Positions 1,586 through 51,174 are shown, counted from the first letter of the stretch. The stretch is 51,174 nucleotides of DNA from a virus (IMGVR_UViG_3300050132_000130:1-51174), one strand, 5' to 3'. Numbers and translations: made by a program. Notes: generated from the sequence alone by a model not told the origin.

Positions 1586-1819
1586 TTACCCTGCCGTTGA
1601 CGGGACGCACGAATAATTAACCGTAAACGTCGCGGCCACAACACTAACCGCCGACGTGATGTTGAAGCCCGTTGTTGTCGCCACGGAACTGCCGATACCG
1701 AAGTTCGTGGAGCCGCCGTTTTCATTCCCTTGGCAAACGTAGGTTGTAGGCGTTGCCGTCCAAGCTGAGGCTATCGAAGCCCCAATCTTCCCATAGCCCT
1801 GTGGTTGCGTGTCGGTCAT
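1586..1819 (-). CDS. Small beta-rich protein resembling a tail-fibre tip module
   Basis: 77 aa, Thr/Ser/Gly-rich; start overlaps the tail spike stop. Confidence 0.5.
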   Translation of the reverse strand: MTDTQPQGYGKIGASIASAWTATPTTYVCQGNENGGSTNFGIGSSVATTTGFNITSAVSVVAATFTVNYSCVPSTAG

Positions 1820-4800
1820 CTACGCCCCGTGAAAAGCCACTTTATCCTGCTCAAAAACGTGTCGTGAATTGGCACGGCATTTTGTTCATCTTCTAAACCC
1901 TGTATTTCTGTTTGCTCGTCTTGCAAAGCCTTCACCAAAACCGCCGTAAGCTGCATATACCGCACACCCGCAACAGAACCGTCGGGATGCAATCCGATTA
2001 AGCGCGGGTCAATATCGCCAACTTCTTCCGCGATAAGGCCAACCTGTCTACCAAGATGTTCAGGGTTAAATTCAGGCTTCAAGTCATATGACACCGGACG
2101 CATTGCTAGAACTTCGGACAATCCATCGTCAAGGTTCTCGATGTTCATTTTTACTTTCAACGTGGACGAGAGACAGGCTAGCGTCGTGTCAACATTTACA
2201 AGCCCCGTTGAGGTCGTCCAACAAAGAGTGCCCGTCGTGGCTGCGCTTGACGATGCCAGACCCGGCAAGTTCAAAGCCCCATAAAGTGTCGTTGCGGTCG
2301 TCGTCCCACTCAACCCTATTTCCGTGGTGTTGCTGCCAAGACCCACACCACCGATTGCGATTGAACCTGTGTCCCCTGCGGCATTCGTCGTCGTCGTTGC
2401 GCTTGTGCCGATTAGGATATTGTTGGAGCCTGTGTTTAGCGTTGTACTCGCCACCCCTGTGCCGATAACAGTGTTAGAAGATCCCGACCAAGATGCTGTT
2501 GAGCATGAGCCCCGCCCGACACAAGTATTACTCGCGGCTGCACCAGTTATGCCGCTTAAAGCGGTTCTTCCTAACGCGGTATTGCCACTGCCAGTTAACT
2601 GTGCCCCATTAAAAGTCCCAGAATTAGCACCGAAAAAAGTATTTGTACTGCCAGAACTAATCGCCGCCCCGGCTCCTTGCCCGACACATGTATCTTCCGC
2701 GCCAGAGGTAACATTCTTACATGCGGCATTACCAAATGCAGTATCCGTTATCGCCGCTGATGTCATAGTGGCAGACAAAGCATTGTACCCGAAGGCCGTA
2801 GCGTTATAGGCTGCTTTTGCACTCATCCCAGATAGTGCCGACGAGCCTGCTGCAACACTTGCGCCGAAAGTGGTGTCATAGGGTGAGAATAATACAGCGG
2901 GTTGTCCTGCGATATTATATCCGTATTGAGTATTTTGATACCCCGTCTTCGTTGTACTGTATTGCCCTATATAGGGCAAAAGCACTGGCGTGATCGCTGC
3001 CGCAAAGTCCTCGTATCCCACCATATTGGGGTGAACATTATCGCCCGCACTTTCACCTAAAGTAACCATTTGACTATAGGACACAAGCCGAGCCCACTCA
3101 TCTACAATAGGCAACCCGGACACATTGGCTGAATTGTTGTTTGCTGCCGCGAGAGAATACATAGCAGAAATAATAGCTGCCTGTACGGCTTGTGATGCCG
3201 ACCCTATGGCTGACGGTGCAGGAGTAAGGATAATAACATCTGCATTTGCAGAATTTTCCGCAGCCGTAATCAGGGTTTGCATATTTGTCGTGTACGCAGA
3301 CGGAGTAATTCCGTTTAGCCAATCATTTATCCCGAGATCAAACACAAACGCGCTGCACCCAAGAGAGTTATTTTTTATAATAGAAACTGCGTCCCATCCA
3401 GCCGTTCCGTTAGTGGCTGACCAATCACCAGATTTAGAACCCGACCACCCAAGATTAACCATGTGCACGGAACTTTTAGTACTATCATATGTTGAAAAAC
3501 CTATGATGAACACGCTACCTGAAACCCAATTAAGATTTACGGTGTTGGCACCAAGAGAACCCGTGATTGTAACAGACCCTATACCTGACGTTCCTGCTGT
3601 GGCCTGCGAAGTGTTCGAACCGCCGTTTAGATTATAATTAAATGAACCGAGGCCGCTATCAATTCTGTAATACACAATAAACGTATCCACGGGGGTAGGA
3701 GCCGTGTACGCCAAGCTTGCTGTAGTAGATGTTGCTGTAAACATGGCTCCGCCTATTGTGGCTTGCGGAGATAGCGTTTCAGACCACCCAGAACCGACCG
3801 TCAGAACATTTGTAAAGCCGCTATGTTTTGTTCCCGGTCCGTCGCCTATGAAATTATTGACATCTGCCATAACGCCTGCATTTCTAAATGCCTGCATAAC
3901 TTGTCCGGGCATACTGTTATAGTAAATTGGAGACGTTGATCCTTGTCCGGTTGTCGTGCTGTCGCCAATCCAGCAAATATTCGTGTTACCAGTTCCCGTA
4001 GGGTTAGCAAGCACGCTATTTACAGCCGCTTTGAGGTGTGGGAGTGACAACGCGTAATTTGTGGTGATGTTGTTTATAGCTCCCGATCCACTCGTCGCCC
4101 CCGTCCCCCCGTTCGCCAAGGGGAGTGTGCCGGTGACGCCAGTGGTCAGGGGCAATCCGGTCAAATTTGTCGCCACGCCAGAGTTCGGCGTACCAAGTAG
4201 CGGCGTCGTCATCGAGCATGATGTAGTCAGACATACCGAGCCGCTACCCGACGAACCTGTCCATGTTGGAGCGGTTGCCGCGCTGCCGCTTCCTGTGCTG
4301 GACAAGAATTTCGGGGTTGTCGTCGTGTTTCCTGCAAGCCGCGTAGGTGCGCCGGATGCTGCGCCGTACACCATGTCGCCGAGCGTCGTCGCCACGGTTT
4401 CGTAAAATGATGTGAAGGCGTTCGCAACCGATGTTTGACCAGTGCCGCCGTTTGCCCCAACGAGCGTACCCGCAAGCGTTATCGCGCCGGACGTAGCCGA
4501 ATTTGGAGTAAGGCCAGTCGTCCCGCCGTTAAATGTCGTGACGCCAGTTGAAGCCGTGAGATACGCCGCTCCATTGCTGAGTTGATTATTATTCGTGATC
4601 GGCGTCACGGTGCAATTGATGATCGTGCCGTTCGTCAAGCACCAATCGCCGTTCGTTAACGTGTTGGCGTGAAGCTCCGTTACGTTCAACGTAAGACTGC
4701 CCGCCGTGTTGGTAGCGTCCCCCGTGTGCGCTGGCTCCTGCGCGGCTTGTAGGGTGCCGCTGGCATAACTTGAAAGATTGATTGCCGTTCCGTTCCATGT

Positions 4801-5361
4801 TCCCGCCGTGATCGTGCCGACCGTCGCAATGTCGGTGCCGACAAGTTTCGACGCGGCAATGCTGCCCGCGAGCATGGCATTCGTGACGACACCGGACGCG
4901 ATGGCAGTTGCATTCCCGACACTCGTCACATTGCCGGTCAAATTGGCATTTGTTATGACCGTCGCCGCATTCCCGACCGATGTCACGCCGCCAGTTAGAT
5001 TTGCGTTCGTCGTCACTGTGGCCGCGTTTCCGCTGATGCTGCCTGTGATCGTGTTTGAAAATGTATCGTTGCCACCAAAGGTCAGGTTACCATTGAGCAA
5101 GCCGAGGACGGCTCCCGACGTCCCGGTCTGCAACGAAGTTCCCCACGCGCTGCCTGTCGATACTGCCACGCCTGCGCCCGGATAAATCTGCACGAACGGC
5201 GCGCCGCCATCACCAACCTGATCTTTGGCCGTCCATGTTGCGTAATGCCCCGGGGTGACGCTACCGACTTGCTGGACACCGGATGATGTTGGGGTGCCTG
5301 CAAATGCTGCGGAAATTATCGCGGCGAAAGATATGGCAATAACGAGAAGTTCTTTTTTCAT
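1816..5361 (-). CDS. Tail spike/fibre with SGNH/GDSL esterase domain and C-terminal Peptidase_S74-type intramolecular chaperone
   Basis: SGNH blocks WIGDSTT, NLGWSG, LGIND, DNVHP; NGGTG and TNANLTG-VTSVGNA repeats; C-terminal SSTLKVKMNI...RPVSY...GLIAEEV plus coiled coil. Confidence 0.85.
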   Translation of the reverse strand: MKKELLVIAISFAAIISAAFAGTPTSSGVQQVGSVTPGHYATWTAKDQVGDGGAPFVQIYPGAGVAVSTGSAWGTSLQTGTSGAVLGLLNGNLTFGGNDTFSNTITGSISGNAATVTTNANLTGGVTSVGNAATVITNANLTGNVTSVGNATAIASGVVTNAMLAGSIAASKLVGTDIATVGTITAGTWNGTAINLSSYASGTLQAAQEPAHTGDATNTAGSLTLNVTELHANTLTNGDWCLTNGTIINCTVTPITNNNQLSNGAAYLTASTGVTTFNGGTTGLTPNSATSGAITLAGTLVGANGGTGQTSVANAFTSFYETVATTLGDMVYGAASGAPTRLAGNTTTTPKFLSSTGSGSAATAPTWTGSSGSGSVCLTTSCSMTTPLLGTPNSGVATNLTGLPLTTGVTGTLPLANGGTGATSGSGAINNITTNYALSLPHLKAAVNSVLANPTGTGNTNICWIGDSTTTGQGSTSPIYYNSMPGQVMQAFRNAGVMADVNNFIGDGPGTKHSGFTNVLTVGSGWSETLSPQATIGGAMFTATSTTASLAYTAPTPVDTFIVYYRIDSGLGSFNYNLNGGSNTSQATAGTSGIGSVTITGSLGANTVNLNWVSGSVFIIGFSTYDSTKSSVHMVNLGWSGSKSGDWSATNGTAGWDAVSIIKNNSLGCSAFVFDLGINDWLNGITPSAYTTNMQTLITAAENSANADVIILTPAPSAIGSASQAVQAAIISAMYSLAAANNNSANVSGLPIVDEWARLVSYSQMVTLGESAGDNVHPNMVGYEDFAAAITPVLLPYIGQYSTTKTGYQNTQYGYNIAGQPAVLFSPYDTTFGASVAAGSSALSGMSAKAAYNATAFGYNALSATMTSAAITDTAFGNAACKNVTSGAEDTCVGQGAGAAISSGSTNTFFGANSGTFNGAQLTGSGNTALGRTALSGITGAAASNTCVGRGSCSTASWSGSSNTVIGTGVASTTLNTGSNNILIGTSATTTTNAAGDTGSIAIGGVGLGSNTTEIGLSGTTTATTLYGALNLPGLASSSAATTGTLCWTTSTGLVNVDTTLACLSSTLKVKMNIENLDDGLSEVLAMRPVSYDLKPEFNPEHLGRQVGLIAEEVGDIDPRLIGLHPDGSVAGVRYMQLTAVLVKALQDEQTEIQGLEDEQNAVPIHDTFLSRIKWLFTGRR

Positions 5362-6555: not shown

Positions 6556-7260
6556 TCAGAACAGTTCAATCTGTTTGGCGGCGGATTCGATGCGGCGCAG
6601 TCCGGCCTCGAACCATTTCTCTGATTTTTCGATGCCGATGTACCGACGACCGGCCTTGATCGCCGCGACGCCGGATGAGAACACGCCAGCGAACGGATCA
6701 CATACGAGTTCGCCGGTCTGAGTGCTGTTTTCGATGTAGGATTGGAATAGGGCGACGGGTTTCTGCGTGGGATGACCTGAATCGTCATCGACCTGGGGGC
6801 ATCGAATGAGTTGTTTTGAGCCGCAATCGTTGATATATTTTGCCTTACCCTTGAAGAAAAACCCCGTAAATTCTAAATTTTTCATGAACCAGCGGTTCGG
6901 TGTTGCCGTCACCTTATCCCACACGAGCAGGTTATGAAATTTGAATCCCGCCACCTCAGCTGCGTTGAGCATGGGCTGGACATTGCGGTTATTTGCCATG
7001 ATGTAAGCATGTCCCGCCGGGAGAGCCGCCGACAATAACGGCATGAAATCCGGCCAGTCAATATCGCAATCGACGATCGACCCAGAATTGTCGTATGTCC
7101 CGCGCGCGAAACAGCCGCCCATCTCTCCGGTTGTATTGCCGCCGGATTCTAGTTTATATGGGGGGTCACAGCATATCATATCGACCGTGCCAATCGTCGG
7201 CAGGATTTCCATACTGTCGCCGCAGATCAGAGTCGCGCCGCCGATTATTTCCGTTCTCAT
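6556..7260 (-). CDS. DNA N6-adenine/N4-cytosine methyltransferase, beta class
   Basis: DPPY catalytic motif precedes HPTQKP and the DPFAG SAM-binding motif. Confidence 0.9.
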   Translation of the reverse strand: MRTEIIGGATLICGDSMEILPTIGTVDMICCDPPYKLESGGNTTGEMGGCFARGTYDNSGSIVDCDIDWPDFMPLLSAALPAGHAYIMANNRNVQPMLNAAEVAGFKFHNLLVWDKVTATPNRWFMKNLEFTGFFFKGKAKYINDCGSKQLIRCPQVDDDSGHPTQKPVALFQSYIENSTQTGELVCDPFAGVFSSGVAAIKAGRRYIGIEKSEKWFEAGLRRIESAAKQIELF

Positions 7261-7583
7261 TCCGTTACCCCGATCGTGCGGTATTCAATTATAACGCATC
7301 TTTCCTTCGCCTTGGCTATAGCTGCGTCGACTCCCCTTGACGTTCCCCGATCCGTATAAACAACCATTTTGCAGGCCACGTCCAGCCACGCCAAACCAGC
7401 CGCGATGCCGTGCGCGCGCTCCTCTGGTATATTTTCGTCAAGGATGCCCGGCTGCGTATATAATAAATGGCTGGCAATCGGACTCTCGCCGCGCATAAGG
7501 CTGTCTCTCACGCATCGCCTCGCATAGGAAGTATTTGCCTCTATGTCTCCCGCGTAAGGCGATTCAATAATAACTAGTTTCAT
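7257..7583 (-). CDS. Conserved phage protein, nucleoside deoxyribosyltransferase-like fold
   Basis: VIIESPYAGD...YAR...GESPIASHLLYTQ...ER-GI-AGL-W pattern common in phages. Confidence 0.7.
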   Translation of the reverse strand: MKLVIIESPYAGDIEANTSYARRCVRDSLMRGESPIASHLLYTQPGILDENIPEERAHGIAAGLAWLDVACKMVVYTDRGTSRGVDAAIAKAKERCVIIEYRTIGVTE

Positions 7584-10682: not shown

Positions 10683-10859
10683 ATGCCAGACGCAAAACTA
10701 TTCGATTTCGCCGCCGAACTGAAACACGAAACCGAGAACGCATTTCTTGTGACAGACGGCGATAAAGATTATTGGCTTCCCAAAAGCATGACGGAAGATA
10801 ATGGGGATGGGACTTGGACGATTCCTGAATGGATTGCCATCGAGAAGGGCATTGTATGA
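10683..10859 (+). CDS. Small conserved phage protein (58 aa; not in ORF track)
   Basis: AGGAG RBS; MPDAKLFDF...HETENAFLV...WLPKS...IPEWIAIEKGIV; ATGA-coupled to the exonuclease. Confidence 0.75.
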   Translation: MPDAKLFDFAAELKHETENAFLVTDGDKDYWLPKSMTEDNGDGTWTIPEWIAIEKGIV

Positions 10860-39060: not shown

Positions 39061-39367
39061 GTTCCACAGAGGGCGGGGAACCGATCTGCAAAAATATGCC
39101 AAATTTCCCTTATTTTTCAACGTTCCCCGTGTTCCCCGCTTTTCCCCAGAAACATATAGAATACCATAGACGAAGGCATATGGTTACCCATTATACCAAT
39201 AGTCCTATATATATAATTATATGTAGTCAAAGATATATATAAGGGGAACGGAACACTAAGCCTTTGATATATAAGAAAAATCGGTTCCCCAGTCCGTTCC
39301 CCAGTGGTTCCCCAGTCGGGGAACATGGCGTGTAATACATTGAACGGTATATATAATTTCGTTCCCA
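39061..39367. repeat. Putative replication origin: GTTCCCC iterons flanking an AT-rich core
   Basis: Direct and inverted GTTCCCC/GGGGAAC copies near 39075, 39122, 39131, 39243, 39284, 39296, 39307 and 39318; AT-rich 39200-39240; IHF match at 39257-39269. Confidence 0.7.
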
Positions 39368-39577
39368 CACCTGTATTCATGCTGTGATCGGCGGGAAAGT
39401 AAGGGGTTTTTCGGGAAGCCGCATATCCCATCCACCAGTGCGCCGAACTATAAACCGCACCCCAGTGACGCCCACCCCGTTTAAACGAGCCACGCCTCAA
39501 CCTGCACAGGATAAACGGCGGCAGAACAAACACGTGAGGTCGGGGATGGTTTCAAAATTAGTTTCAGTCAGATTTTA

Positions 39578-39624
39578 CGCGCGCCCGAAATGCCCGTGTA
39601 CGTTGCAGACCTCTGGGAGGACCC
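39578..39624 (-). other. Putative cos site (cosQ plus cosN)
   Basis: - strand GGGTCCT (identical to lambda cosQ, 39624-39618), 23 nt ending in ACG, then GGCATTTCGGGCGCGCG; same spacing as lambda; phage encodes a GpA terminase. Confidence 0.65.
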
Positions 39625-39801
39625 TAAGTCTTTGATATATATAGACATTCCTTGTGTGGTATCCCGATACCATTACTCAACTCATTGATATATAATATAT
39701 TACATTATTGTATATTATATATCATTATCAATATGTTATGTATTATGTTAAATGAAATAACATATAGTATATTCAACCACTTAAGTATTATGTTAAATGA
39801 A
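39625..39801. promoter_or_regulatory. AT-rich tract with three IHF consensus sites and a 17-bp direct repeat
   Basis: WATCAANNNNTTR matches at 39625-39637 (-), 39678-39690 (-), 39726-39738 (+); gtattatgttaaatgaa at 39740 and 39785. Confidence 0.6.
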
Positions 39802-39810
39802 CAAGACAAG

Positions 39811-39842
39811 AAAAAGGCGAGTCAATCTTGTTGACTCGCCTT
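39811..39842 (-). terminator. Rho-independent terminator of the HNH gene
   Basis: Perfect 12-bp stem aaggcgagtcaa/ttgactcgcctt running into a T-tract on the - strand. Confidence 0.75.
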
Positions 39843-39859
39843 GATAGTTATGAATGAAA

Positions 39860-40591
39860 TTATATGCCCCGACAGTTATCGGCGAGTCGTTGCCATTTAG
39901 GATCGTCGCTTGAATGCTTGAGTCTATTACAATCAAGGCAACATATAACAATGTTATCTTGCGTATGTAATCCGCCAGAAACAAGCGGCTTAACGTGATC
40001 CATTGACTTGTTTGCAGGTGTAAGAGGCTTGCGACAATAAGGGCAGTCTTGCGATGAATCAAAAAGATTCTGGAGCCATTGCTTTGTAACACTTCCATCG
40101 CTTGCACGTTTTGCAGCTAGTTGATTCGTGCTTAGGTGTTTTTCATTATCCACAAAATATCGCCTTGATTTTTCTTTGAATGTGTTGCGCCTATATCTAT
40201 CCCTGTACCGCGCGGCTTCTTTCTGTCTAAAATATTTTGCTTCTTCTTCCGTTAGCGTTGCATACCAGGCCTTTGTACCTTGTGCAGGTTTTGCCGGATG
40301 GTCTAGGCGATAGAGTCGCTTGGCTTCCTTCCTTGCGGCTTGGTCAATAATCCGTTGCGCCTTGTGTTCGACTGATAGGATAGATTGAATCGCCTTAGGG
40401 ATATATTCCTTGTTTGTTTCTCCTCTCCTGCGCCGCCCGTCTGCCCTTGCTTGTGGCGAATGTGCAGCAATAAAAGACGGCGAATTCCTTACACAATGCG
40501 TGCAGGATGCCGTTAATCCATCTTTTGATGCCTTACGTTTAGAAAAGGCGGATTCTTCCTTCTCTATTAGGCAGGTTGTGCAAGTTTTCAT
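39860..40591 (-). CDS. HNH endonuclease with N-terminal zinc-ribbon
   Basis: CPYC...DHVKPLVSGG-H-DN-CC-DCN-K; N-terminal CTTC...DGL...CTHC; likely start MKTCTTC. Confidence 0.88.
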   Translation of the reverse strand: MKTCTTCLIEKEESAFSKRKASKDGLTASCTHCVRNSPSFIAAHSPQARADGRRRRGETNKEYIPKAIQSILSVEHKAQRIIDQAARKEAKRLYRLDHPAKPAQGTKAWYATLTEEEAKYFRQKEAARYRDRYRRNTFKEKSRRYFVDNEKHLSTNQLAAKRASDGSVTKQWLQNLFDSSQDCPYCRKPLTPANKSMDHVKPLVSGGLHTQDNIVICCLDCNRLKHSSDDPKWQRLADNCRGI

Positions 40592-40755: not shown

Positions 40756-40799
40756 GTCATCAAGAGAACAAAACAACCCGCAAACAAACGGAGTCTAAA

Positions 40800-40997
40800 A
40801 TGAAAACAGCACAAGCAACAATTACTAAGGACATGACACTAGGTCAGGCCGTTGCAGCTATCCAATATGCGTGGCCTGCTACAAGATGCCGTATTTCTTA
40901 CCCCGAAAATAATGTTGTTACAATCGAGGAAAACGAAAAAGGAATACAGCGTTGCGATATTGGATTTACGATAGCTTGCCTTTACCGCCAATCCTAA
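40800..40997 (+). CDS. Small early hypothetical protein
   Basis: GGAGTCTAAAATG leader. Confidence 0.75.
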   Translation: MKTAQATITKDMTLGQAVAAIQYAWPATRCRISYPENNVVTIEENEKGIQRCDIGFTIACLYRQS

Positions 40998-41017
40998 CAA
41001 ACCAATAGGAGTCTAAA

Positions 41018-41200
41018 ATGAAAAAACAACCACAAACAATCACAACTCTATTCATGGGCTATCAGGCTAATCTTGCAACATGCCACACAAGCCTAGAGCG
41101 TCAATTGTCGCGCGTGATAACCGGAAAAGAGATTCGCGCGCTTGCCATAAAGAAGGGCATGTTGACGAGTCGCGAGTCTGCTATCGTCGCGCAATTTTAA
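41018..41200 (+). CDS. Small early hypothetical protein
   Basis: GGAGTCTAAAATG leader. Confidence 0.75.
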   Translation: MKKQPQTITTLFMGYQANLATCHTSLERQLSRVITGKEIRALAIKKGMLTSRESAIVAQF

Positions 41201-41224
41201 TCCCTCATACAAAAGGAGTCTAAA

Positions 41225-41515
41225 ATGTATGAATTAAAAATAATCGCCGCGCCCGTATCATCCTACAAGGTGGAATCGAACGGCGAGTCGATAACCATGA
41301 TAAGCCAAGCATGGAATAGCCCTGCATTGCTGCATCAAGTCCGGCATGTAAAAAACCTACAGGAAGGGATTCATGTTGTGCAAGCCTGTTTTAATCAGGT
41401 TAGGCAGGATCACCCCGAAACCGAATTTAGTTTTTCGACTCGTGCTATCGGGCGTAAACCTAACGGATTCGACAAAGTGAGAGTCCAGCTGAATCCTAGC
41501 TACACTAACGTTTAA
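41225..41515 (+). CDS. Early hypothetical protein
   Basis: AAGGAGTCTAAAATG leader. Confidence 0.75.
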   Translation: MYELKIIAAPVSSYKVESNGESITMISQAWNSPALLHQVRHVKNLQEGIHVVQACFNQVRQDHPETEFSFSTRAIGRKPNGFDKVRVQLNPSYTNV

Positions 41516-41538
41516 CCCTCAAACAAAAGGAAAATACC

Positions 41539-42171
41539 ATGTTGCACACACAGACTCCCCTAGAAAAAATAACTGCGCGTAGGTCACAATATAACCCTGA
41601 TAGAGCGTTTTTTATCCCTCCCGGATATACGCTTGCAATTGACGACGAGTCGCTAGGAGTCGCCATATATCACGGACTCGGCGTAAAATATGGTAAGCCT
41701 TGTTCTATTCGGTTTTTCGGGAAGTCTAAAAAACCCCGTGAACATTACAGGTATGACTCGGAAGAAAAACGCGCGGAAGGTGACTCAAAATTCATGGAGT
41801 CGAGTCGATCGTGTATGAATTACAGGGAAGCAAACAAAGCGGCGGCAAAGGCAAAACGCGCGACTCCCCATACACTAAAAGAAGGCGATATATTGGTTAG
41901 TTCATGGGGTTATGAGCAAACCAATGTTGAATTCTATCAGGTGATAGGACTCAAGGGTCAATTCACGGTTTTATTGAAAGAGATAGGCGGAAAAAGCGTA
42001 GGTTGCGAGGGTTCCAGCATGTCAGATATGGTAATCCCTGTTAAGGACTCGTTCGGGGATTCTAAGGTAATAGAAAGGCGCGCGTGTGTTGGCAATTATA
42101 TCAAGATTAATGACTGCCAACAGGCGAGTCTATGGGAAGGGTGCCCTATGTATAGGTCTTGGTACGCATAA
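41539..42171 (+). CDS. Conserved phage early protein (SWGYEQTNVEFYQV motif)
   Basis: GDILVSSWGYEQTNVEFYQV motif recurrent in mobile-element proteins; function unknown. Confidence 0.75.
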   Translation: MLHTQTPLEKITARRSQYNPDRAFFIPPGYTLAIDDESLGVAIYHGLGVKYGKPCSIRFFGKSKKPREHYRYDSEEKRAEGDSKFMESSRSCMNYREANKAAAKAKRATPHTLKEGDILVSSWGYEQTNVEFYQVIGLKGQFTVLLKEIGGKSVGCEGSSMSDMVIPVKDSFGDSKVIERRACVGNYIKINDCQQASLWEGCPMYRSWYA

Positions 42172-42172
42172 A

Positions 42173-42230
42173 GGACGAAACGCCGAAAGGCGTCTTAGGG
42201 TATGTTCCCTAACTGAAGAGTCCACAAACA
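42173..42230 (+). ncRNA. Type II hammerhead ribozyme
   Basis: GGAC-GAAA-CGCC-gaaa-GGCG-UC^-UUAGGG-uauguu-CCCUAA-CUGAAGA-GUCC: intact core, three stems, GUC cleavage triplet (cut after 42194). Confidence 0.92.
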
Positions 42231-42245
42231 AATGGAGAGTCTAAA

Positions 42246-42929
42246 ATGTCTATCATCAACACACGAGTCGAATGCCTTAAAGCCGTTTTCCCATTCGTTT
42301 CAAAAGAGGAAACGCGCTATTACCTGAACGGCGTTTACGCCGAGTCCGGCCTGTTAGTCGCCACTGACGGGCATAGGCTTGCAGCGATTAAACCTGCCCT
42401 AATGGAGTCGCAAGGGGCGGGATTCATAATCCCTAGTGCGACGATTAAACAGGTCTTGTCTATCAAGGCCGGGAAACGCGAAGAATTATTCTCTGAATTC
42501 AATACGGAAACGGGAGTCGCCACGGTTTACACGTTAGACCGCGATAAGAATCGCGATTCAAAAGGCGCGTTTCCGTTTAAACCTATCGACGGCACGTTTC
42601 CAGAATGGCGGCGCGTGATTCCATCGGCGGAAAATTTTAATACCGCCAACCATAAGGATCGGAATCAAAACACGGGCGCGGAATTCAATTCCGCATATCT
42701 TGCCACTTTTCAGGCATTCGGGGATAAGGTAAACGTGTTTTTGAATAATGATCCCGGCGCGCCTTCACTTGTGACGGCAAAAACGGAATTGTTTGAGGCT
42801 GTAGGGGTGATTATGCCAATGCGTAGCTATGAATTGGCCGCCGTATTGCCTGAATGGATCAAGGTGACACCTACCCCCCCGGCGGCATTGGATTCAGAAA
42901 CGGTAAAGGAATCTGAATCGGTTATTTAA
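42246..42929 (+). CDS. Truncated DNA polymerase III beta-clamp-like protein
   Basis: SKEETRYYLNGVY, VATDGHRL, IDGTFPEWRRVIP, FNSAYL, VIMPMR correspond to DnaN central and C-terminal domains; 227 aa. Confidence 0.85.
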   Translation: MSIINTRVECLKAVFPFVSKEETRYYLNGVYAESGLLVATDGHRLAAIKPALMESQGAGFIIPSATIKQVLSIKAGKREELFSEFNTETGVATVYTLDRDKNRDSKGAFPFKPIDGTFPEWRRVIPSAENFNTANHKDRNQNTGAEFNSAYLATFQAFGDKVNVFLNNDPGAPSLVTAKTELFEAVGVIMPMRSYELAAVLPEWIKVTPTPPAALDSETVKESESVI

Positions 42930-42988
42930 TGTAAGACCGTGCCCGTGCGGTTCACGGGCGAATTATGTAAATAAACAGGAGTCGAGTC

Positions 42989-43267
42989 ATGTCAAAACAT
43001 ACGCCAGCATCTTGGATCGTAAGGGATGTATTTATAGAAAATTTTCCTAATAAATACATGATAACAGAAAATAAATGGGGCGGTAAAACCATTGCTGATT
43101 GTGGAATTACTGTATCACAAGAAAGCATAGCTAATGCCCGATTAATGGCGGCGAGTCCTGAATTGTTTCACATTGTAACCGAGTTTTTAGAATGCGGTGA
43201 CAATGCCGGGCACAATGAAGAATTAAAGGCATTGGCACGAGCCGCTATTGCCAAAGCTAGGGGATAA
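42989..43267 (+). CDS. Conserved phage protein (HTPxxW...ANARLxAAxPEL family)
   Basis: KHTPASW, ANARLMAASPEL and ARAAIAKA motifs. Confidence 0.8.
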   Translation: MSKHTPASWIVRDVFIENFPNKYMITENKWGGKTIADCGITVSQESIANARLMAASPELFHIVTEFLECGDNAGHNEELKALARAAIAKARG

Positions 43268-43338
43268 TCCCCCCGGCATTGATAAAAATAAACCGAGTCG
43301 GGCAATAATGCCCCCTCATACAAAAGGGAGTATATAAA

Positions 43339-43560
43339 ATGAGCAACGTATCAGGCACAACGCCGCGCTATCTGCCCGGCCAAAAATTCAAGACAGGCGG
43401 CAAGCGAGGGGATATTTGCACCGTTACAGATATTCATAAAACCTATAACGGCTCGGGGGAATTGGTAAAAACCCGTTACGTTGCAACGCATGAATTTTGC
43501 GGTCAGGTGATAACGGACTCGGATGTTGTGGAAGCAACTATCGCGCGGGGGTTGCTATGA
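43339..43560 (+). CDS. Small hypothetical protein
   Basis: GGGAG RBS within a repeated leader; ATGA-coupled to the next ORF. Confidence 0.75.
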   Translation: MSNVSGTTPRYLPGQKFKTGGKRGDICTVTDIHKTYNGSGELVKTRYVATHEFCGQVITDSDVVEATIARGLL

Positions 43561-45836: not shown

Positions 45837-46262
45837 ATGTCGGCAGCCATAACCCAATCAATACTGACGTGGCAACAGCGGGCGGAAATGTACCAGCGCC
45901 GATGTGAGGCGCTCGAACAGCAATTATTCGAGATGAAATTAGTTATCGCTGAACCGAAACAATTTGATGCGACTTTTATTAATGCGTTTGGACTAACAAA
46001 ACAGGAAGACTTGGCGCTCGATTATATTATGCGACACGATTATCCGACGAGAGAAAGAATATATCACGCATGTTCACAGGATGGCCGCATTAATGCGGGG
46101 TCGTCTCCTAAGATCGTCGATGTTCTGGTCAGCAGAATACGGAATAAATTGAAGAAACACGGCATCAGGATCGAGACACAATGGGGAGTCGGTTATCGTA
46201 TGAGCAACGAGAGTAAGGCGCTGGTGAGGCGCGTGGCGGCAGCGTATCAGGGGCAGGTGTAG
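45837..46262 (+). CDS. CtrA/OmpR-type winged-helix DNA-binding protein lacking a receiver domain
   Basis: GLTKQE...PKIVDVLVSRIRNKL...IETQWGVGY Trans_reg_C signature preceded by a short coiled coil. Confidence 0.85.
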   Translation: MSAAITQSILTWQQRAEMYQRRCEALEQQLFEMKLVIAEPKQFDATFINAFGLTKQEDLALDYIMRHDYPTRERIYHACSQDGRINAGSSPKIVDVLVSRIRNKLKKHGIRIETQWGVGYRMSNESKALVRRVAAAYQGQV

Positions 46263-46266
46263 GTTG

Positions 46267-46545
46267 TTACTGGTTCAGGCATGTCGCACCTTTCATCTGC
46301 TCAATAATTTCTGGGTGACAATATATCTTATCGCCCATCTGGATCATTCCCGGCACCTGCTTGCTTTGAAAGCCCCAAGCCTTCATAAGCTTCTTGTGGA
46401 CGCGGCGTGACCGATTACGGCTCTTTTTGAAGTTCTCAATCTTTTGCATAATGCGGTCGCTCGATATAATAGGAATACCCGCAAGCATCGAGAGCATACC
46501 AGACTGATGTCCGATATAAGCTAACGGGTTCGTGGTTTGTGTCAT
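46267..46545 (-). CDS. Small hypothetical protein (MTQTT start)
   Basis: Last gene of the coupled - strand array. Confidence 0.7.
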   Translation of the reverse strand: MTQTTNPLAYIGHQSGMLSMLAGIPIISSDRIMQKIENFKKSRNRSRRVHKKLMKAWGFQSKQVPGMIQMGDKIYCHPEIIEQMKGATCLNQ

Positions 46546-46649
46546 TGCATCACCTGCCGGTAAAGAGAGGCCAATCTTTCTTTGCTCATTTTCTTGATCT
46601 TGCGATTTTTTGCTTTTGGTTTCTTTTTCGTGGTTTTAGATTCTGTCAT
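46542..46649 (-). CDS. Small basic peptide (35 aa, MTESKTT start; not in ORF track)
   Basis: AGGAGG RBS; overlaps both neighbours. Confidence 0.55.
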   Translation of the reverse strand: MTESKTTKKKPKAKNRKIKKMSKERLASLYRQVMQ

Positions 46650-46842
46650 TTAATGCCTCCTGATAACCCTTGGCCCAAGCTGCGTCTAATTCTTTGGCGC
46701 TATCGCTTGCCATCTCGATACTTTCCAACAAATCAGTGATTTCGCTCTCTACTGGCGGCGGCAGTCCGTTATCAGCGAACCATGTGAAAACCGCCCATCG
46801 CTTCGGGTCGCGCATTGTCTGGGTCGTTTGGGTTTTATCCAT
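46636..46842 (-). CDS. Small hypothetical protein (MDKTQTT start)
   Basis: GGAG RBS; overlapping array gene. Confidence 0.65.
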   Translation of the reverse strand: MDKTQTTQTMRDPKRWAVFTWFADNGLPPPVESEITDLLESIEMASDSAKELDAAWAKGYQEALNDRI

Positions 46843-47020
46843 TTAGCATCTCCAAGACATCCGGCTTAACATTGATGACGCAAATATCTTCCTTTTCCTC
46901 GATCTTCCCAATGGATGAACATACCCGATGGTAGGCAAGAGGAGCATTGCCGTCTTTCAAATTCTTTTTTAGAGAATAGAGAAATAACAGCAATTTATCT
47001 TTCGATATTTCAGTTTTCAT
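46835..47020 (-). CDS. Small hypothetical protein
   Basis: Overlapping array gene. Confidence 0.6.
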   Translation of the reverse strand: MKTEISKDKLLLFLYSLKKNLKDGNAPLAYHRVCSSIGKIEEKEDICVINVKPDVLEMLNG

Positions 47021-47198
47021 TGCCCATCGCCTCCATGTTGCCGAGTGATTGAATTAGCTGGCTGCGTAATTCATTGTCACGCTTGAGGTTCGCGCTCAGT
47101 TTTTCAATCTCTGCTTTTACAAGCGAGATGATAAACTCAGGAACGTGAACTTTCGTGGCATAAGGCGGCATAGTCATTGTTTTAGTTGTGGATTGCAT
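47010..47198 (-). CDS. Small coiled-coil protein (MQSTT start)
   Basis: GGGAG RBS; overlapping array gene. Confidence 0.6.
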   Translation of the reverse strand: MQSTTKTMTMPPYATKVHVPEFIISLVKAEIEKLSANLKRDNELRSQLIQSLGNMEAMGNEN

Positions 47199-47313
47199 CA
47201 GGCTTCTCCCAGAACCAATGATGATTTACTGCACGCCAGAAGCGGATAAAAGCTATCGCGTCTTTGTCGCGCCGATAATGGATTTTTAAGGTGCGCTTGG
47301 TCGTTACTGTCAT
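47182..47313 (-). CDS. Small hypothetical protein (43 aa, MTVTT start; not in ORF track)
   Basis: GGAGG RBS and ATGA overlap with the 47310 stop. Confidence 0.55.
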   Translation of the reverse strand: MTVTTKRTLKIHYRRDKDAIAFIRFWRAVNHHWFWEKPDAIHN

Positions 47314-47696
47314 TCAAATCCTCCGAAGAATGAAAATGGTTTAGTCGGGCCATTTGGTTGATAAAGCCAACATTGAGATTCACCGCATGGGTTATCAAAT
47401 TGATCTAGCGGTCTAGCTGTGTACATGACTGTTCGGCCATCTTCGCATTTCCACATCCTATTCCCACAGTAGCTCCAATTGCCGCCGAGACGCTTTTTCA
47501 AGATAGACGTTTTACTGCCAGCGCGAACAGCCTTTAGAGACAAAAGAAAATCAGGAATTTCTGTCGTTTTAGATTCCACCCTTGGCGTAGCTTCCTGCTG
47601 CTTAACAGTTGAGTTCTCGGCTCGGTGTCCATCGCTGGTATCCGCCGCCAGCGTCCGAGATACGGTGGAATTATTCGCCGTTTGTGGATTAGTCAT
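47310..47696 (-). CDS. Hypothetical protein
   Basis: GGAGG RBS; MTNPQTA start plus an internal VESKTT. Confidence 0.65.
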   Translation of the reverse strand: MTNPQTANNSTVSRTLAADTSDGHRAENSTVKQQEATPRVESKTTEIPDFLLSLKAVRAGSKTSILKKRLGGNWSYCGNRMWKCEDGRTVMYTARPLDQFDNPCGESQCWLYQPNGPTKPFSFFGGFE

Positions 47697-47914
47697 AGTG
47701 CCTCCATTTTCTCTATTTGTCTGATTATGCTATCAGCCATCTCAACAGCATCTTCGTGGCGAACAAAATTCCTGATTGTGATCCAATCCAAAATAACATC
47801 CTTAACTGACCACCTCTCATGCCATGCTGAAGTTCCGCAGTGATAATCAGCCGAAGAGACATTCCGCAAACACGCGAATACCTCAGACAATGAGATCATT
47901 TGTGGTTCGGTCAT
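47693..47914 (-). CDS. Small hypothetical protein
   Basis: ATGA-coupled on both sides. Confidence 0.65.
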   Translation of the reverse strand: MTEPQMISLSEVFACLRNVSSADYHCGTSAWHERWSVKDVILDWITIRNFVRHEDAVEMADSIIRQIEKMEAL

Positions 47915-48087
47915 ACATTCACCTTTATTTTTAATTCCAAAGCCCCATCTTCCATGTATTGGCGCATGTAACGAAAGGCTTCCGCTACAACCATATCAAT
48001 GGGTCCGCATCCTTCAGCCACAATCATCCCGTCTTGCTCAATAAAAAATTCAGCATCTGGTTTCGTGGTTTGTGAATTATTCGTCAT
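47911..48087 (-). CDS. Small hypothetical protein (58 aa, MTNNSQTT start; not in ORF track)
   Basis: GGGAG RBS; overlaps both neighbours. Confidence 0.6.
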   Translation of the reverse strand: MTNNSQTTKPDAEFFIEQDGMIVAEGCGPIDMVVAEAFRYMRQYMEDGALELKIKVNV

Positions 48088-48253
48088 CGGATGCTCCCGC
48101 GCCTAAAGTTTGAGTAGTTATCCAACGCCCACGACCGCCGCTAGTCTGGCGTACGAGGTGCTGCAAATATATTGCTCCCCACGAGGAACGACGAAGGCGG
48201 TATCGTCCGGTCGGAACTACAGTTCCTTCCCACCAATTCGTGGTTTGGGTCAT
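48077..48253 (-). CDS. Small hypothetical protein (MTQTT start)
   Basis: GGAGG RBS and ATGA overlap. Confidence 0.65.
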   Translation of the reverse strand: MTQTTNWWEGTVVPTGRYRLRRSSWGAIYLQHLVRQTSGGRGRWITTQTLGAGASDDE

Positions 48254-48444
48254 ATCGTAGCCTCCCCGCAAACTGCCCTCAGAATATGTTCCGGGACGTT
48301 GGCATTATGTAGCGCAAACCAGTCGGTTACGCCCTTGGCTCGCCATTTCCATTTGCCCGCTCCGAGGAATCTGTAGGAGATCCCCTCACATTCAAGGTCA
48401 ATGCGATTTGAATATTTAAAAATCGTGATCTCCGCTTTTGTCAT
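48250..48444 (-). CDS. Small hypothetical protein
   Basis: ATGA-coupled on both sides. Confidence 0.65.
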   Translation of the reverse strand: MTKAEITIFKYSNRIDLECEGISYRFLGAGKWKWRAKGVTDWFALHNANVPEHILRAVCGEATI

Positions 48445-48650
48445 TTGTGCACCCGAGGGTTTTTGAGTTTGTTCTTCTTAGGTAGCGGCGGAAATCCACG
48501 AAGAGTCGCCTTCGATTCCATACCCATCCCGGGCTTCGATGAGAACTCCATAGAGGTGCAGACCCATCGCTGGCTTCTGATAGTTTCCCGCGTGAATGAA
48601 GACACGGAACCAGGCATTTGCACGGTGATAGTGATAGTGGTTTGTGTCAT
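48441..48650 (-). CDS. Small hypothetical protein (MTQTT start)
   Basis: GAGGGG RBS and ATGA overlap. Confidence 0.6.
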   Translation of the reverse strand: MTQTTITITVQMPGSVSSFTRETIRSQRWVCTSMEFSSKPGMGMESKATLRGFPPLPKKNKLKNPRVHK

Positions 48651-49171
48651 GCTACTTTCCCCCTCAAGATAAATTGCGCGATATGTCGGGCAGTTCCTTT
48701 GCCAGCGGATCCGTCCTCGGTTGCTAACCACTTCACATCGCCAAGATTGCGAATTTCTGCACCAGCCTTAACGAGCATGAGCAACCATTTATCAACCGGA
48801 AAAACTATCACGACATCTTTGCCTTTTTCCTGTTCTTTGATCGCTTTGCGAACCCATGCGGTCGGCCCCTTTTTCTTGCCTTCGTGCATGATGTATCCGA
48901 ACGGCGGATTGACGTAACTCGACTTCCCCCATTCGCAGGTTAGCCCGTCGAAGTATTCGGGCTTCGGATACGGGCAAGGATCAAAGTCGAAATTAAACTC
49001 GCCCTGCATCTGAGCCATAAGTTCAGGCGGCGTAAGCCAATAATGTTTTCCGTCATCTCCATTGCCTTTGTGGAATTTGTTGTCAGCGGGCGCAAGCAAT
49101 GATTGATGAGGCGTCGCTGGTTCATCCCAGATTTTTGCCATCTGTTCGCTAAAAGTCGTTTCCATTGTCAT
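48647..49171 (-). CDS. Phage DNA N6-adenine methyltransferase (Dam-like)
   Basis: WLTP, FDFDPC, W-YVNPPF, W-KA-E motifs. Confidence 0.8.
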   Translation of the reverse strand: MTMETTFSEQMAKIWDEPATPHQSLLAPADNKFHKGNGDDGKHYWLTPPELMAQMQGEFNFDFDPCPYPKPEYFDGLTCEWGKSSYVNPPFGYIMHEGKKKGPTAWVRKAIKEQEKGKDVVIVFPVDKWLLMLVKAGAEIRNLGDVKWLATEDGSAGKGTARHIAQFILRGKVA

Positions 49172-49320
49172 GTCTTTTCCCTCATATATTTTGTGATCTG
49201 AACCCAGTCTTTAGAAAACTTTTGGAAATCTGATGGATCGGCAAACACCGTATCAAATTTACCGTTCTTCTTTTCGATAATCCAAACTTCCTTTGGTAAT
49301 TCTGTCGTTATTGTTGTCAT
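49168..49320 (-). CDS. Small hypothetical protein (50 aa, MTTITT start; not in ORF track)
   Basis: ATGA-coupled on both sides. Confidence 0.6.
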   Translation of the reverse strand: MTTITTELPKEVWIIEKKNGKFDTVFADPSDFQKFSKDWVQITKYMREKT

Positions 49321-49580
49321 GGCTTTCTTCCCTTCATGGCGTCGATGAAATTTAGCAAGACGCCGTTCGTCTCAAGTTTGGCGATTTTCATCCACTCGAA
49401 AAGCTCGGCACAGAAATTTGCGGGAGCAATAGCATTCTTGCAAGCTTGGTTATAAAGTCGCTCATAGGCCGGAGCGTACTTCTGCGGCAAGCCGTCCTCA
49501 TTTTCTTCCTCAGCGTAATCGACCGCCTCCTTTAAGAGAAGCCAATCAACGATTGTAGGATCGGGTGTGGTTTGTGTCAT
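49317..49580 (-). CDS. Small hypothetical protein (MTQTT start)
   Basis: AAGGTG RBS and ATGA overlap. Confidence 0.65.
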   Translation of the reverse strand: MTQTTPDPTIVDWLLLKEAVDYAEEENEDGLPQKYAPAYERLYNQACKNAIAPANFCAELFEWMKIAKLETNGVLLNFIDAMKGRKP

Positions 49581-49747
49581 TGCATCACCTTCAAAGCTAA
49601 GATTGATTTCTCGACATCCTCAAATAAGTCTTGGCGGTTTGCTTTAGGAAATTTGCGCGCAATTTTTGCTGCTAGTTCCAGAGCATCATTGAACCCGTCA
49701 TCGTATAGTTTTTGATCGTTAGATTTCGTGGTTTTAGATTCACTCAT
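49577..49747 (-). CDS. Small hypothetical protein (MSESKTT start)
   Basis: AGGAG RBS; GFNDALELAAKIA. Confidence 0.65.
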   Translation of the reverse strand: MSESKTTKSNDQKLYDDGFNDALELAAKIARKFPKANRQDLFEDVEKSILALKVMQ

Positions 49748-49967
49748 TGCAGACTTTCTCCTGTGCTTGATAATAGGCGGCATCATCGCAAGCCTTCACG
49801 AGATCGCCGTTATTATCTTCATGATTGTGTTCCGGTTGTGCGCCGGAAATTTTAATGCACTCCTCAAAATAAGCATGTCGCTTGTCTTGATTGGTTTCAT
49901 GGTCGCAGACTTTGCAACCGGACAGAAGCAGTAGTGCGGCCAGAATAACTGTTGTTTTATATTCCAT
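49740..49967 (-). CDS. Putative lipoprotein (MEYKTT start)
   Basis: AGGAGG RBS; VILAALLLLSG^C lipobox. Confidence 0.65.
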   Translation of the reverse strand: MEYKTTVILAALLLLSGCKVCDHETNQDKRHAYFEECIKISGAQPEHNHEDNNGDLVKACDDAAYYQAQEKVCNE

Positions 49968-50166
49968 TGAGAATGCCTCCTGCAAGATTTCCAATATCTG
50001 AGAAACCTTCTCGGTAGTCCTCAGAATTAAGAGAGCAGAGGGCATCTATTTTCTGGAAAGCATCCTGAAGATAATTTACTGCCGTAAGTGCATCCGCAAC
50101 AGTCTGCACATCTTGATCGAGAATGCCGAGCTTGATGATGTCGAATAGGGTCGTTTGTGTTGTCAT
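49957..50166 (-). CDS. Small hypothetical protein (MTTQTT start)
   Basis: AAGGA RBS and ATGA overlap. Confidence 0.65.
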   Translation of the reverse strand: MTTQTTLFDIIKLGILDQDVQTVADALTAVNYLQDAFQKIDALCSLNSEDYREGFSDIGNLAGGILNGI

Positions 50167-50690
50167 ATCAATTTCCTTTCAGGTTCCAGCTTCCGTTCTG
50201 CCAAGCAGATCGTATCGTTATGCGCCCCACCGTGGCAGACAAGCAGTATTTCCTCTATCTCATACCCGCGCCCTTTTCCCATGCCAACTGTGTTCCAGCC
50301 GAATGAAAGGACGATGCCGCCGACTTCAACAATCGGATCGAAAGCATCCCTGACGCGCTTGTAGAGCAATGCGCTCTGCGTTTCCTTCATGCCGACTTCC
50401 ATGCCGATATTCTTATAACATTCCGAAATCTGGCGAGGGGAATAAGGTGGATCGAACAGAACGAGATCAATAGGTTTGCCGAGCTGTTTGCAGAACTCTT
50501 CAGCGTCCATATGGCTATCGGCTTGTGTGGTAGGGTCAAGATCATTCGTGTAGGTTGCCAGACGCTTGTTTCTAGCAAACGGGTCGATACTTACCTTTGA
50601 CGCAGAAAGATAGCGGCGCACAAAGTCGCCGATTGGGGCAATCGAGAATGTTTCGTGATTAGGCATCGCCCATGCGCGTGAGAATTTCAT
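50163..50690 (-). CDS. Putative adenine-specific DNA methyltransferase
   Basis: IDPFA (SAM-binding-like) and LFDPPYS catalytic motifs; HGGAHND. Confidence 0.75.
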   Translation of the reverse strand: MKFSRAWAMPNHETFSIAPIGDFVRRYLSASKVSIDPFARNKRLATYTNDLDPTTQADSHMDAEEFCKQLGKPIDLVLFDPPYSPRQISECYKNIGMEVGMKETQSALLYKRVRDAFDPIVEVGGIVLSFGWNTVGMGKGRGYEIEEILLVCHGGAHNDTICLAERKLEPERKLI

Positions 50691-51174
50691 TTTTTCTTAC
50701 CCCATATATGACTATGGAGGTCTTGGCTTTCTTGCTTAGTAAGGGGCTTCTTTTTTGTTGCCGCTTCCGCACGCCAGATAGCGCGTTGGCGGTCATGCCC
50801 CCAGCCTCTATCGCTTGCAATGCGCCGAAGCGTGTTGATGCTCATATCGTATTTCTCGACAAGCTGCGCGTTCTTGATTGAGCCATCAACCCATTCGGCT
50901 TTGGTAAATGCCTTTGCACGTTCTTCGACAGCGGCTTTCTTTGCCGCGCCGCCCCGTTCGCCGCCAATTTTTGCCGACCCTTTGCGCCTCGCATCCTTCC
51001 ACCATTTGACCAGATTTTCTATGTTGCTAGGGACAATCCAAAAGTTTCCGTCCTCTTGGCTTACAAGCTTCGCCTTGCTCTTTCTAGCCAGAGCAAGAAA
51101 ATCTCGGAAATGTTTTTCATCTTCCGCGATAACCCCAAGACTTACTACATGCAAAGCATCACGACACTTGCGGG
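50687..51174 (-). CDS. 3' part of the 207-aa resolvase-like/HTH protein (starts at 263)
   Basis: DALHVVSLGVIA, KAKLVSQEDG, KIGGERGG and C-terminal HTH NAQLVEKYDMSINTLRR follow resolvase/invertase architecture. Confidence 0.7.
   Translation of the reverse strand, partial: RKCRDALHVVSLGVIAEDEKHFRDFLALARKSKAKLVSQEDGNFWIVPSNIENLVKWWKDARRKGSAKIGGERGGAAKKAAVEERAKAFTKAEWVDGSIKNAQLVEKYDMSINTLRRIASDRGWGHDRQRAIWRAEAATKKKPLTKQESQDLHSHIWGKKK
51048..51174. repeat. Terminal direct repeat, copy 2 (circular assembly overlap)
   Basis: Identical to 1-127. Confidence 0.95.

Follow-up and report, generated by a model that had tools for sequence, protein, structure and literature searches.

The DNA analysed here, IMGVR_UViG_3300050132_000130:1-51174 (the window, 51,174 bases in all), is a complete phage genome with a 127-bp exact terminal direct repeat (1-127 and 51048-51174) and 51,047 unique bases, and its minus strand carries from 50166 to 46267 a gapless array of 18 translationally coupled, overlapping genes for proteins of 35-174 amino acids (aa) (Table 1). 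Most of these genes open with a short polar leader followed by two threonine codons, and the last base of the preceding codon together with this Thr-Thr pair gives an in-frame hexamer, AAC(C/G)AC, which is the subject of this work. A preliminary description of the region had proposed that each unit consists of a gene body together with the ribosome-binding site and ATG for its successor, the units being linked through a short core that keeps the frame. Its account of the layout as a gapless, coupled minus-strand array holds: neighboring genes overlap by 4-17 nucleotides (nt) at every junction (18 of 18 overlap, 11 of them as ATGA), intergenic DNA is absent, and a Shine-Dalgarno-like purine run is present at all 18 starts, such that the array has the single strand, the overlapping stops and starts and the lack of gaps of a translationally coupled operon.

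The gene bodies are unrelated, as had been stated, since an all-against-all BLASTP comparison returns matches only in the shared N-termini; for this reason the array genes were rejected as paralogues. Searches of the 18 proteins against PHROGs and Pfam gave matches only for a Dam-like methyltransferase and a weak lipoprotein family, and the 128-aa protein of gene 12 is an ORFan with no relative among 5.8 billion proteins.

A frame-locked hexamer at the starts of the array genes

Thr-Thr occurs within the first eight residues of 14 of the 18 array genes, the figure given in the preliminary description for about 18 genes, and of 5 of the 62 other genes (Fisher p = 1.7e-8), which rejects the motif as a genome-wide feature of starts. 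When only ATGA-type starts are compared, the proportions are 11 of 15 in the array and 3 of 30 elsewhere in the genome (p = 3e-5), and the analogous coupled early array of Acetobacter phage phiAP1 has no Thr-Thr at any of 16 starts. The motif is therefore not a by-product of the ATGA overlap, and a comparison that had been proposed as a possible refutation of the cassette idea left it standing. Past codon 10 the array bodies contain 2 Thr-Thr pairs in 1142 residues, and threonine is scarce there (3.7% of codons).

The same concentration is seen at the nucleotide level. AAACSAC is present in 25 copies in the 51 kb, 11 of which lie in the 3.9-kb array, all on the minus, coding strand. Within 33 nt after the ATG of array genes, AAC(C/G)AC is distributed over the three reading frames as 12:0:1 in favor of the Thr-Thr frame, while in non-array gene bodies the distribution is 11:12:5, without frame preference; the corresponding count in G002, one of two other uncultured phages with the motif, is 7:0:1. 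Past position 33 the array bodies hold a single copy, within the internal V-E-S-K-T-T of gene 12. This internal copy had been noted near 47570 as a likely fused junction, and it may be either that or an internal GTG start. An out-of-frame AACCAC reported for the start at 47914 is likewise present.

To what extent is the motif a nucleotide rather than a peptide feature? Pooling of 47 junctions (14 from the window, 9 from G002 and 24 from the second such phage, G006) shows that the first Thr (Thr1) is the fourth to eighth residue. The codon ahead of Thr1 ends in A in 45 of 47 cases whatever residue it encodes, being CAA in 17 of 17, GTA in 8 of 8, AAA in 7 of 7, GAA in 5 of 5, CCA in 3 of 4 and ATA in 2 of 2 instances; in the other genes of the window GTA is used least among the Val codons (9.8%). 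The wobble base of Thr1 is C in 22, G in 21, A in 4 and T in no case, that is, C or G in 43 of 47 against a genome use of ACC plus ACG of 64% (p = 1.6e-5), whereas the wobble base of the second Thr (Thr2) matches genome usage. In the codon two places ahead of Thr-Thr, 42 of 47 junctions have C as the middle base, the residue being Ser, Thr or Pro, and information content falls to about zero immediately past the second Thr codon. The examination of synonymous sites suggested in the preliminary description thus comes out in favor of constraint on the DNA.

The hexamer begins 5-8 nt past the last base of the upstream stop in 35 of the 47 junctions and in 12 of the 14 from the window, in line with the distance of about 8 nt noted before; the upstream stop was assigned by script and is doubtful for the start at 47198. 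The gap is 5 or 8 nt with one kind of overlap and 7 nt with the other, and this dependence indicates that the frame with the ATG is kept and not the distance to the stop. Silent-site pattern and frame lock together identify the core as a motif of nucleotides, A-A-C-(C/G)-A-C, with a fixed codon phase.

The leaders fall into families (MTQ, MTTx, xESK, xDNPQ, xESP and xSV) whose members recur on unrelated bodies, both inside one phage and from phage to phage. Among 1081 junction pairs, similarity of at least 12 nt is found upstream of the hexamer in 50 pairs and downstream of it in one. Moreover, a linker of about 24 nt occurs in two copies at junctions 3 kb apart (Table 1); it is made up of the ribosome site, the end of the upstream gene (final codons and stop), the ATG, the leader and the hexamer, and its copies sit on unrelated genes, including the last codons of unrelated upstream genes.

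Table 1 Features of the array and of the rest of the window; on the minus strand the higher coordinate of a gene is its predicted start
Feature	Coordinates	Strand	Product	Leader, core and remarks
DNA methyltransferase	50163..50690	-	phrog_11619	directly upstream of array, coupled to gene 1; own start without Thr-Thr leader
Gene 1	49957..50166	-	69 aa	MTTQ + TT; hexamer 50155-50150
Gene 2	49740..49967	-	75 aa, lipoprotein-like (signal peptide with Cys; phrog_10627)	MEYK + TT; variant hexamer AACAAC 49956-49951
Gene 3	49577..49747	-	56 aa	MSESK + TT; hexamer 49733-49728
Gene 4	49317..49580	-	87 aa	MTQTT; hexamer 49572-49567
Gene 5	49168..49320	-	50 aa	MTTITT; hexamer 49309-49304
Gene 6	48647..49171	-	174 aa, Dam-like N6-adenine DNA methyltransferase	MTME + TT; hexamer 49160-49155
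Gene 7	48441..48650	-	69 aa	MTQTT; hexamer 48642-48637
Gene 8	48250..48444	-	64 aa	MTKAEIT; without Thr-Thr
Gene 9	48077..48253	-	58 aa	MTQTT; hexamer 48245-48240
Gene 10	47911..48087	-	58 aa	MTNNSQ + TT; hexamer 48070-48065
Gene 11	47693..47914	-	73 aa	MTEPQM; AACCAC out of frame
Gene 12	47310..47696	-	128 aa	MTNPQTA (near-motif); internal V-E-S-K-T-T 47580-47563, hexamer 47568-47563
Gene 13	47182..47313	-	43 aa	MTVTT; hexamer 47305-47300
Gene 14	47010..47198	-	62 aa	MQSTT; C precedes Thr-Thr, so hexamer incomplete
Gene 15	46835..47020	-	61 aa	MKTEIS; without Thr-Thr
Gene 16	46636..46842	-	68 aa	MDKTQ + TT; hexamer 46828-46823
Gene 17	46542..46649	-	35 aa	MTESK + TT; hexamer 46635-46630
Gene 18 (last)	46267..46545	-	92 aa	MTQTT; hexamer 46537-46532
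Two-gene unit bounded by hexamers, exchangeable	49727..50159	-		95% to G006, about 96% to X2 contig; flanks unrelated in all three
Linker, copy 1	46532..46555	-		about 24 nt
Linker, copy 2	49567..49590	-		about 24 nt
Convergent gene	45837..46262	+	OmpR-like winged-helix C-terminus, phrog_731	
Repeat protein gene	1816..5361	-	1181 aa	
DNA methyltransferase	6556..7583 (stretch that includes the nucleoside 2-deoxyribosyltransferase-like gene)			
Nucleoside 2-deoxyribosyltransferase-like gene	7257..7583			
AT-rich non-coding stretch	39200..39870			
Tandem pair, 45 nt	39712..39801			within the AT-rich stretch
Early genes with common leader	40782..43340	+		starts 40800, 41018, 41227, 41539, 42246, 43339

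Breakpoints and leader reuse in other phages

A fundamental question is whether the hexamer marks the places at which related genomes cease to be alike. The DNA common to the window and G006 consists only of 50159-49727, which corresponds to 8074-8506 of G006 (433 nt, 95% identity). At the 5' edge neither the upstream genes nor the leaders are related (MTTQ in the window, MPNESP in G006) and identity begins at the hexamer of gene 1; at the 3' edge it takes in the lipoprotein gene and then the start signals of the gene that follows (ribosome site, ATG and leader MSESK), and ends directly past the second Thr codon of that gene (start 49747), beyond which the bodies are unrelated. A 988-nt contig from run X2, which derives from another sample and another study, matches 50155-49724 with 18 differences and is unlike the window on both sides; manual reading of its flanks gives the upstream leader MTDKPV+TT and, downstream, MSESKTTK followed by a third body. 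A further variant, MGKPIESK+TT (P0004), comes from the 90% protein cluster of gene 1. The gene 1 body (LFDIIK...) is consequently found behind four leaders in four sources, MTTQ, MPNESP, MGKPIESK and MTDKPV, each then followed by TT, and MSESK+TT stands on three different bodies (window, G006 and X2), always behind the same lipoprotein gene.

A second segment, shared by G002 and G006 (260 nt, 78%), spans the next gene's ribosome site, ATG and MTTE leader and again ends directly past Thr-Thr. Homologues of the body that it contains, ...TVMVKVLDQ..., occur in a large protein collection with six leaders, five of which end in TT (MTDSK, MPQSDPQ, MPSESE, MPDKQTV and MEKAKTI before TT; MTPTK without it), and the protein is encoded by no cultured phage. 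Indels and replacements between relatives are thus bounded by the element in the G006, X2 and G002-G006 segments. The preliminary description had named breakpoints unrelated to the motif as evidence that would speak against it; the mapped edges lie at the hexamer, and together with the reuse of leaders they support its proposal of a body joined in frame to a start module carried by the gene before it. In these comparisons the leader and ATG of a gene stay linked to the upstream gene and not to the body that they serve, in agreement with that proposal.

The lipoprotein gene differs from its neighbors in that its core is degenerate (AACAAC in the window, I-T in G006 and X2), and in none of the three contexts seen is its junction a breakpoint, a combination that fits the cassette reading. 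The core of gene 1 is ACG in the window, G006 and X2, and the C/G base differs where the same leader meets different bodies (three joints). This is a weak hint that the C/G base of Thr1 goes with the body, in which case the crossover might fall between AAC and (C/G)AC.

How widespread is the motif? Among 372 loci (4.4 Mb, both strands), at least five motif starts per 4 kb are found only in the window, G002 and G006 loci, and the remaining loci, about 360 from phages and prophages, have at most three in any 4 kb. G002 and G006 both carry the motif on small genes almost wholly different from those of the window. G002, found through portal relatives in IMG/VR and a pattern scan of five records, is 36 kb long and 77% complete, with 58% portal and 84% capsid identity to the window. 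Between its helicase and methyltransferase lie 14 small genes, nine of which have a Thr-Thr leader by manual reading (MTQTT twice, MTVTT, MSDPQTT, MSNKTLTT, MPSESETT, MTTETT, MTESKPQTT and MNRTT), and no homologue of the window's small array genes is present in G002. In G001, which has about 70% nucleotide identity to G002, the helicase is directly coupled to the methyltransferase, and the whole G002 array is therefore an indel placed exactly between these two genes, bounded by the stop of the former and the start of the latter. At the upstream edge of the array, some 70 nt short of the G002 helicase stop (L197 13530-13545), there is a copy of AAACGAC out of frame, possibly by chance.

G006, found by a scan with gene 1 of the window, has a complete genome (57,960 bp, terminal repeats) whose structural genes are unlike those of the window. 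Common to both are the RecE/RecB-type exonuclease (53%), its neighbor gene, the primase (30%) and one small gene. G006 has two convergent arrays, with Thr-Thr leaders in 7 of 10 and 16 of 19 genes by manual reading, counts that omit three nested open reading frames (ORFs) reading TT (8327, 8718 and 13093) in which a ribosome site is absent or which lie inside a longer gene. These arrays stand head to head at L368 8061-14186, with their last stops at 10247 and 10254, and directly ahead of the plus-strand one is a free-standing gene for an HNH/AP2-type endonuclease (L367 4479-4955).

Wider searches extended this distribution little. The array DNA had no near match among 50,697 phage records, and in distant mode only the methyltransferase was matched, in 2 records. 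Scans of viral contigs with gene 18 (92 aa) and the flanking regulator (141 aa) found no relatives, an 18-nt junction word had 0 matches, and a 20-nt pattern of the MTESKTT/MSESKTT leader was matched in G006 only. Arrays were present in none of the loci around homologues of two of the methyltransferases (80 and 80 viral, 80 metagenomic; best identity 74-85%).

Genomic setting of the array

The stop of gene 18 is 4 nt from that of the convergent plus-strand gene, and a terminator-like hairpin is absent between them. The minus strand of the window also encodes a lambda-like portal and a myovirus tail module (PHROG matches, phage search), and the genome carries genes for two helicases, one of them Dda-like, a primase (37100-38863), a RusA-like resolvase and, in the region 9538-11996, a RecE/RecB-type exonuclease. 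The nearest named phages, at about 50% portal identity, are Serratia phage BZS1, Citrobacter phage phiNP and Acetobacter phage phiAP1. Run X1, which is labelled a peat metagenome, contains the window in full and may be where this DNA came from; no RNA run is listed for the array. An alignment search with the capsid in the genomes of 185,579 species returned 80 prophage loci of at most 60% identity, spread over Alpha-, Beta- and Gammaproteobacteria; a search of the same genomes by exact peptide patterns of the capsid gave no match.

Several further features of the genome were observed. The three DNA methyltransferases belong to different families and, with the nucleoside 2-deoxyribosyltransferase-like gene, hint at DNA modification. 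Between the replication genes and the array operon lies the gene for the 1181-aa protein, in which short Asn/Thr/Gly-rich repeats are numerous and whose C-terminus gives weak matches to tail fibres or tail spikes. The plus-strand early genes share a leader just 5' of the ATG that consists of an A/C-rich run, then GGAG, then TCTAAA, often with CCCTCA(A/T)ACAAAAGG before it, and these leaders form a second family of repeated start modules, one located upstream of the ATG. The AT-rich non-coding stretch, which separates divergent operons and contains several TGATATATA-type repeats and the 45-nt tandem pair, is a possible origin or control region.

Models for the array and relation to known systems

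Phage early regions are the main store of ORFans for anti-defence and host takeover. How can such a region turn over rapidly without loss of expression? We hypothesize, and consider somewhat more likely than not, that the array is a set of exchangeable in-frame cassettes joined at the Thr-Thr hexamer, with start signals donated by the upstream unit. A cassette would start at the in-frame hexamer, formed by the last base of one codon and Thr-Thr, and continue as an ORF body to its stop, with a 3' end that overlaps the next gene's ribosome-binding site, ATG and 3-7 polar leader codons; it would end at the next hexamer. With the likeness of the leaders as an aid, recombination in or at this hexamer would place a new body behind a resident start module, and as frame and translational coupling would be preserved, the incoming ORF would be expressed at once. 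The region would thus be a hyperplastic early-gene region, its genes presumably early accessory genes, and the hexamer would be kept because it serves as the joint. The frame lock would follow because exchange at the core yields protein only if all cores share one phase, and silent sites would be conserved because the core is read as DNA. The same cassette reading also explains the loss of similarity past the core, the reuse of leaders and the presence of one motif on different gene sets and backbones.

By what means would the joining occur? The phages' own general recombination functions or some nuclease would presumably be responsible. The likeliest route would in our view be annealing-type recombination by the phage exonuclease module at leader and core, followed by selection for in-frame products, and a core-specific nuclease is a bolder alternative. 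That the hexamer is the target of a dedicated cut-and-join or strand-switch activity, such that cassettes free of integrase and attC move ORF bodies, already fit for translation, between co-infecting phages, is in our estimate unlikely. The T4 primase recognizes the triplet GTT and its primers start with AC; the complement of the hexamer ends in GTT, and by this analogy cassette ends could coincide with priming sites.

Several observations weigh against exchange at the hexamer. All gene starts are predictions, some of those outside the array being uncertain, and four of the 18 array genes (starts 48444, 47914, 47696 and 47020) are without an early Thr-Thr. Only two homologous segments were mapped at the DNA level, in three genome comparisons, the rest of the case for mosaicism deriving from protein N-termini, and the G002-G006 segment has an ambiguous 5' edge, located within the leader or ahead of it, because the leaders are similar. 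No alternative joints, deletions or circles inside the array were present in the assembled contigs of runs X1 and X2. Tyrosine recombinases of the IntI type (PF00589) were found in 0 of 3 genomes (G000, G002 and G006; control 14 of 14), serine recombinases (PF00239) likewise in 0 of these 3, and attC-like hairpins are absent from the junctions, the 7 short inverted repeats of the array lying elsewhere in it. Six bases are far too short for ordinary homologous recombination. Moreover, a viable joint is confined to about 10-15 nt between the upstream stop and the start of the body, and breakpoints near the hexamer are therefore partly forced; this geometry leaves unexplained the recurrence of one hexamer at that place in roughly three quarters of the genes. 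Finally, the start regions are unusually unstructured, A-rich and G-poor, which also fits selection for translation.

The last point leads to a less probable but serious alternative, namely that leader and Thr-Thr form a portable translation-start module, an unstructured A/C-rich start with well-tolerated opening codons that acts as an expression tag or downstream enhancer, with mosaic boundaries coinciding passively as the sole shared sequence and the sole viable place for a joint. The predicted folding energy of the -20 to +30 windows at the 18 starts averages -4.27 kcal/mol, whereas 50-nt windows taken over the whole array average -7.83 (p = 7e-6), and positions +4 to +27 are 12% G and 46% A where the array bodies are 25% G and 28% A. 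Leaders rich in A and C, with N-termini rich in T and Q, are also seen in the plus-strand early genes of the window. Expression in E. coli is reported to be raised by CA-rich stretches placed 3' of the start codon (Martin-Farmer and Janssen 1999, cited in PMC4611024), and such downstream box or CA-rich enhancers resemble the array motif in being A/C-rich, low in structure and placed just 3' of the start codon. However, neither dependence on frame nor a role as recombination boundaries is reported for them, and an RNA enhancer needs no reading frame, yet the hexamer is frame-locked and the distance to the stop is adjusted. The C or G at the wobble position of Thr1, never T, opposes a simple A-rich, G-poor preference, and at each of the two codons still further 5' the wobble base is A in only 27 of 47 cases, as against 45 of 47 directly before Thr1. 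The motif is also absent from the structural and replication genes of the same phage and from the complete relatives G003 and G004 (52-54% portal identity to the window). A translational role of the motif is plausible and may coexist with its use as a joint.

A shared N-terminal peptide signal, in which the polar leader and Thr-Thr would act as a degradation tag, modification site or targeting signal, would account for the strict reading frame, for the recurrence of E-S-K-(x)-T-T with different codons (GAA TCT AAA in the window, GAG AGT AAA in G002) and for the common form [S/T/P]-x-T-T that is reflected in the conserved middle C two codons before Thr-Thr. We nevertheless regard it as improbable, since the constrained silent sites are needless for a peptide, the Thr-Thr of the lipoprotein lies inside a signal peptide and is replaced by I-T in G006 and X2, and the travel of the leader with the upstream gene is left unexplained. 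An operator, at which an RNA- or DNA-binding factor from phage or host would bind or cut to control the early genes all together, after the manner of RegA- or RegB-type control or of stoperators, would suit a motif that is orientation-specific, adjoins start codons, is confined to early arrays and is conserved as nucleotides, but is very improbable, as six bases are short for a specific site, frame lock and breakpoints find no explanation in it, and no protein common to all three phages emerged (G002 being only 77% complete).

If cassettes joined at the hexamer are the better account, to what known systems do they compare? Integron cassettes are promoterless ORFs in one orientation that are expressed from upstream and exchanged at a short core. 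The cassette logic of the array is alike, but the array is without an integrase and without attC hairpins or room for them, which leaves an integron-like mechanism unsupported; its joint, moreover, lies in frame inside the ORF and each cassette supplies the start of its downstream neighbor. In lambdoid phages, short conserved linker or boundary sequences at gene boundaries have been proposed to guide modular exchange; these lie between genes or at gene ends, whereas the in-frame hexamer lies a few codons into the gene. A limited literature search, which included phage gene-boundary sequences, found no description of an in-frame Thr-Thr joint.

The closest concept is that of the promoter-early stem-loop (PeSL) cassettes of T4-type phages, repeats that flank ORFans in hyperplastic early regions (Arbiol et al. 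2010, PMC2839356). PeSLs are intergenic and transcriptional, with conservation spread over about 100 bp, a sigma-70 promoter and a terminator hairpin (PMC2839356). In both systems a short repeat bounds indels and replacements and brings expression signals, such that shuffled genes are expressed. The array, however, has no intergenic DNA, and its element, made up of ribosome site, ATG, leader and 6-nt core, lies in coding sequence and acts in frame and at the level of translation. Between 39000 and 51174, sigma-70-like promoter sites number 19 against 19.8 expected and terminator-like sites 16 against 13 expected, so that neither the promoters nor the stem-loops of PeSLs are seen in excess. The start-associated sequences (SAS) of Cluster K mycobacteriophages are 13-bp elements with a Shine-Dalgarno core, 3-7 bp upstream of the ATG, asymmetric and tied to the starts of non-structural genes, and they are suspected of acting in translation (Pope et al. 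2011, PMC3203893). The array motif is similar in being a short, start-linked repeat in one orientation, conserved across relatives on different gene families, but it differs in lying 9-21 nt downstream of the ATG, in being translated and frame-locked and in marking mosaic breakpoints, while the Shine-Dalgarno regions of the array vary.

For the annotation of such phages, the first 4 to 9 residues of array proteins belong, in evolutionary terms, to the neighboring gene. Here the unit of exchange and the joint can be read from the sequence, and what they outline seems to be a novel means by which viral genes are shuffled without loss of translation. If recombination targets the hexamer, the PeSL idea would be extended from transcription to translation signals, and these phages would possess a compact natural system of in-frame ORF shuffling that could be adapted as a tool for cloning or library construction.

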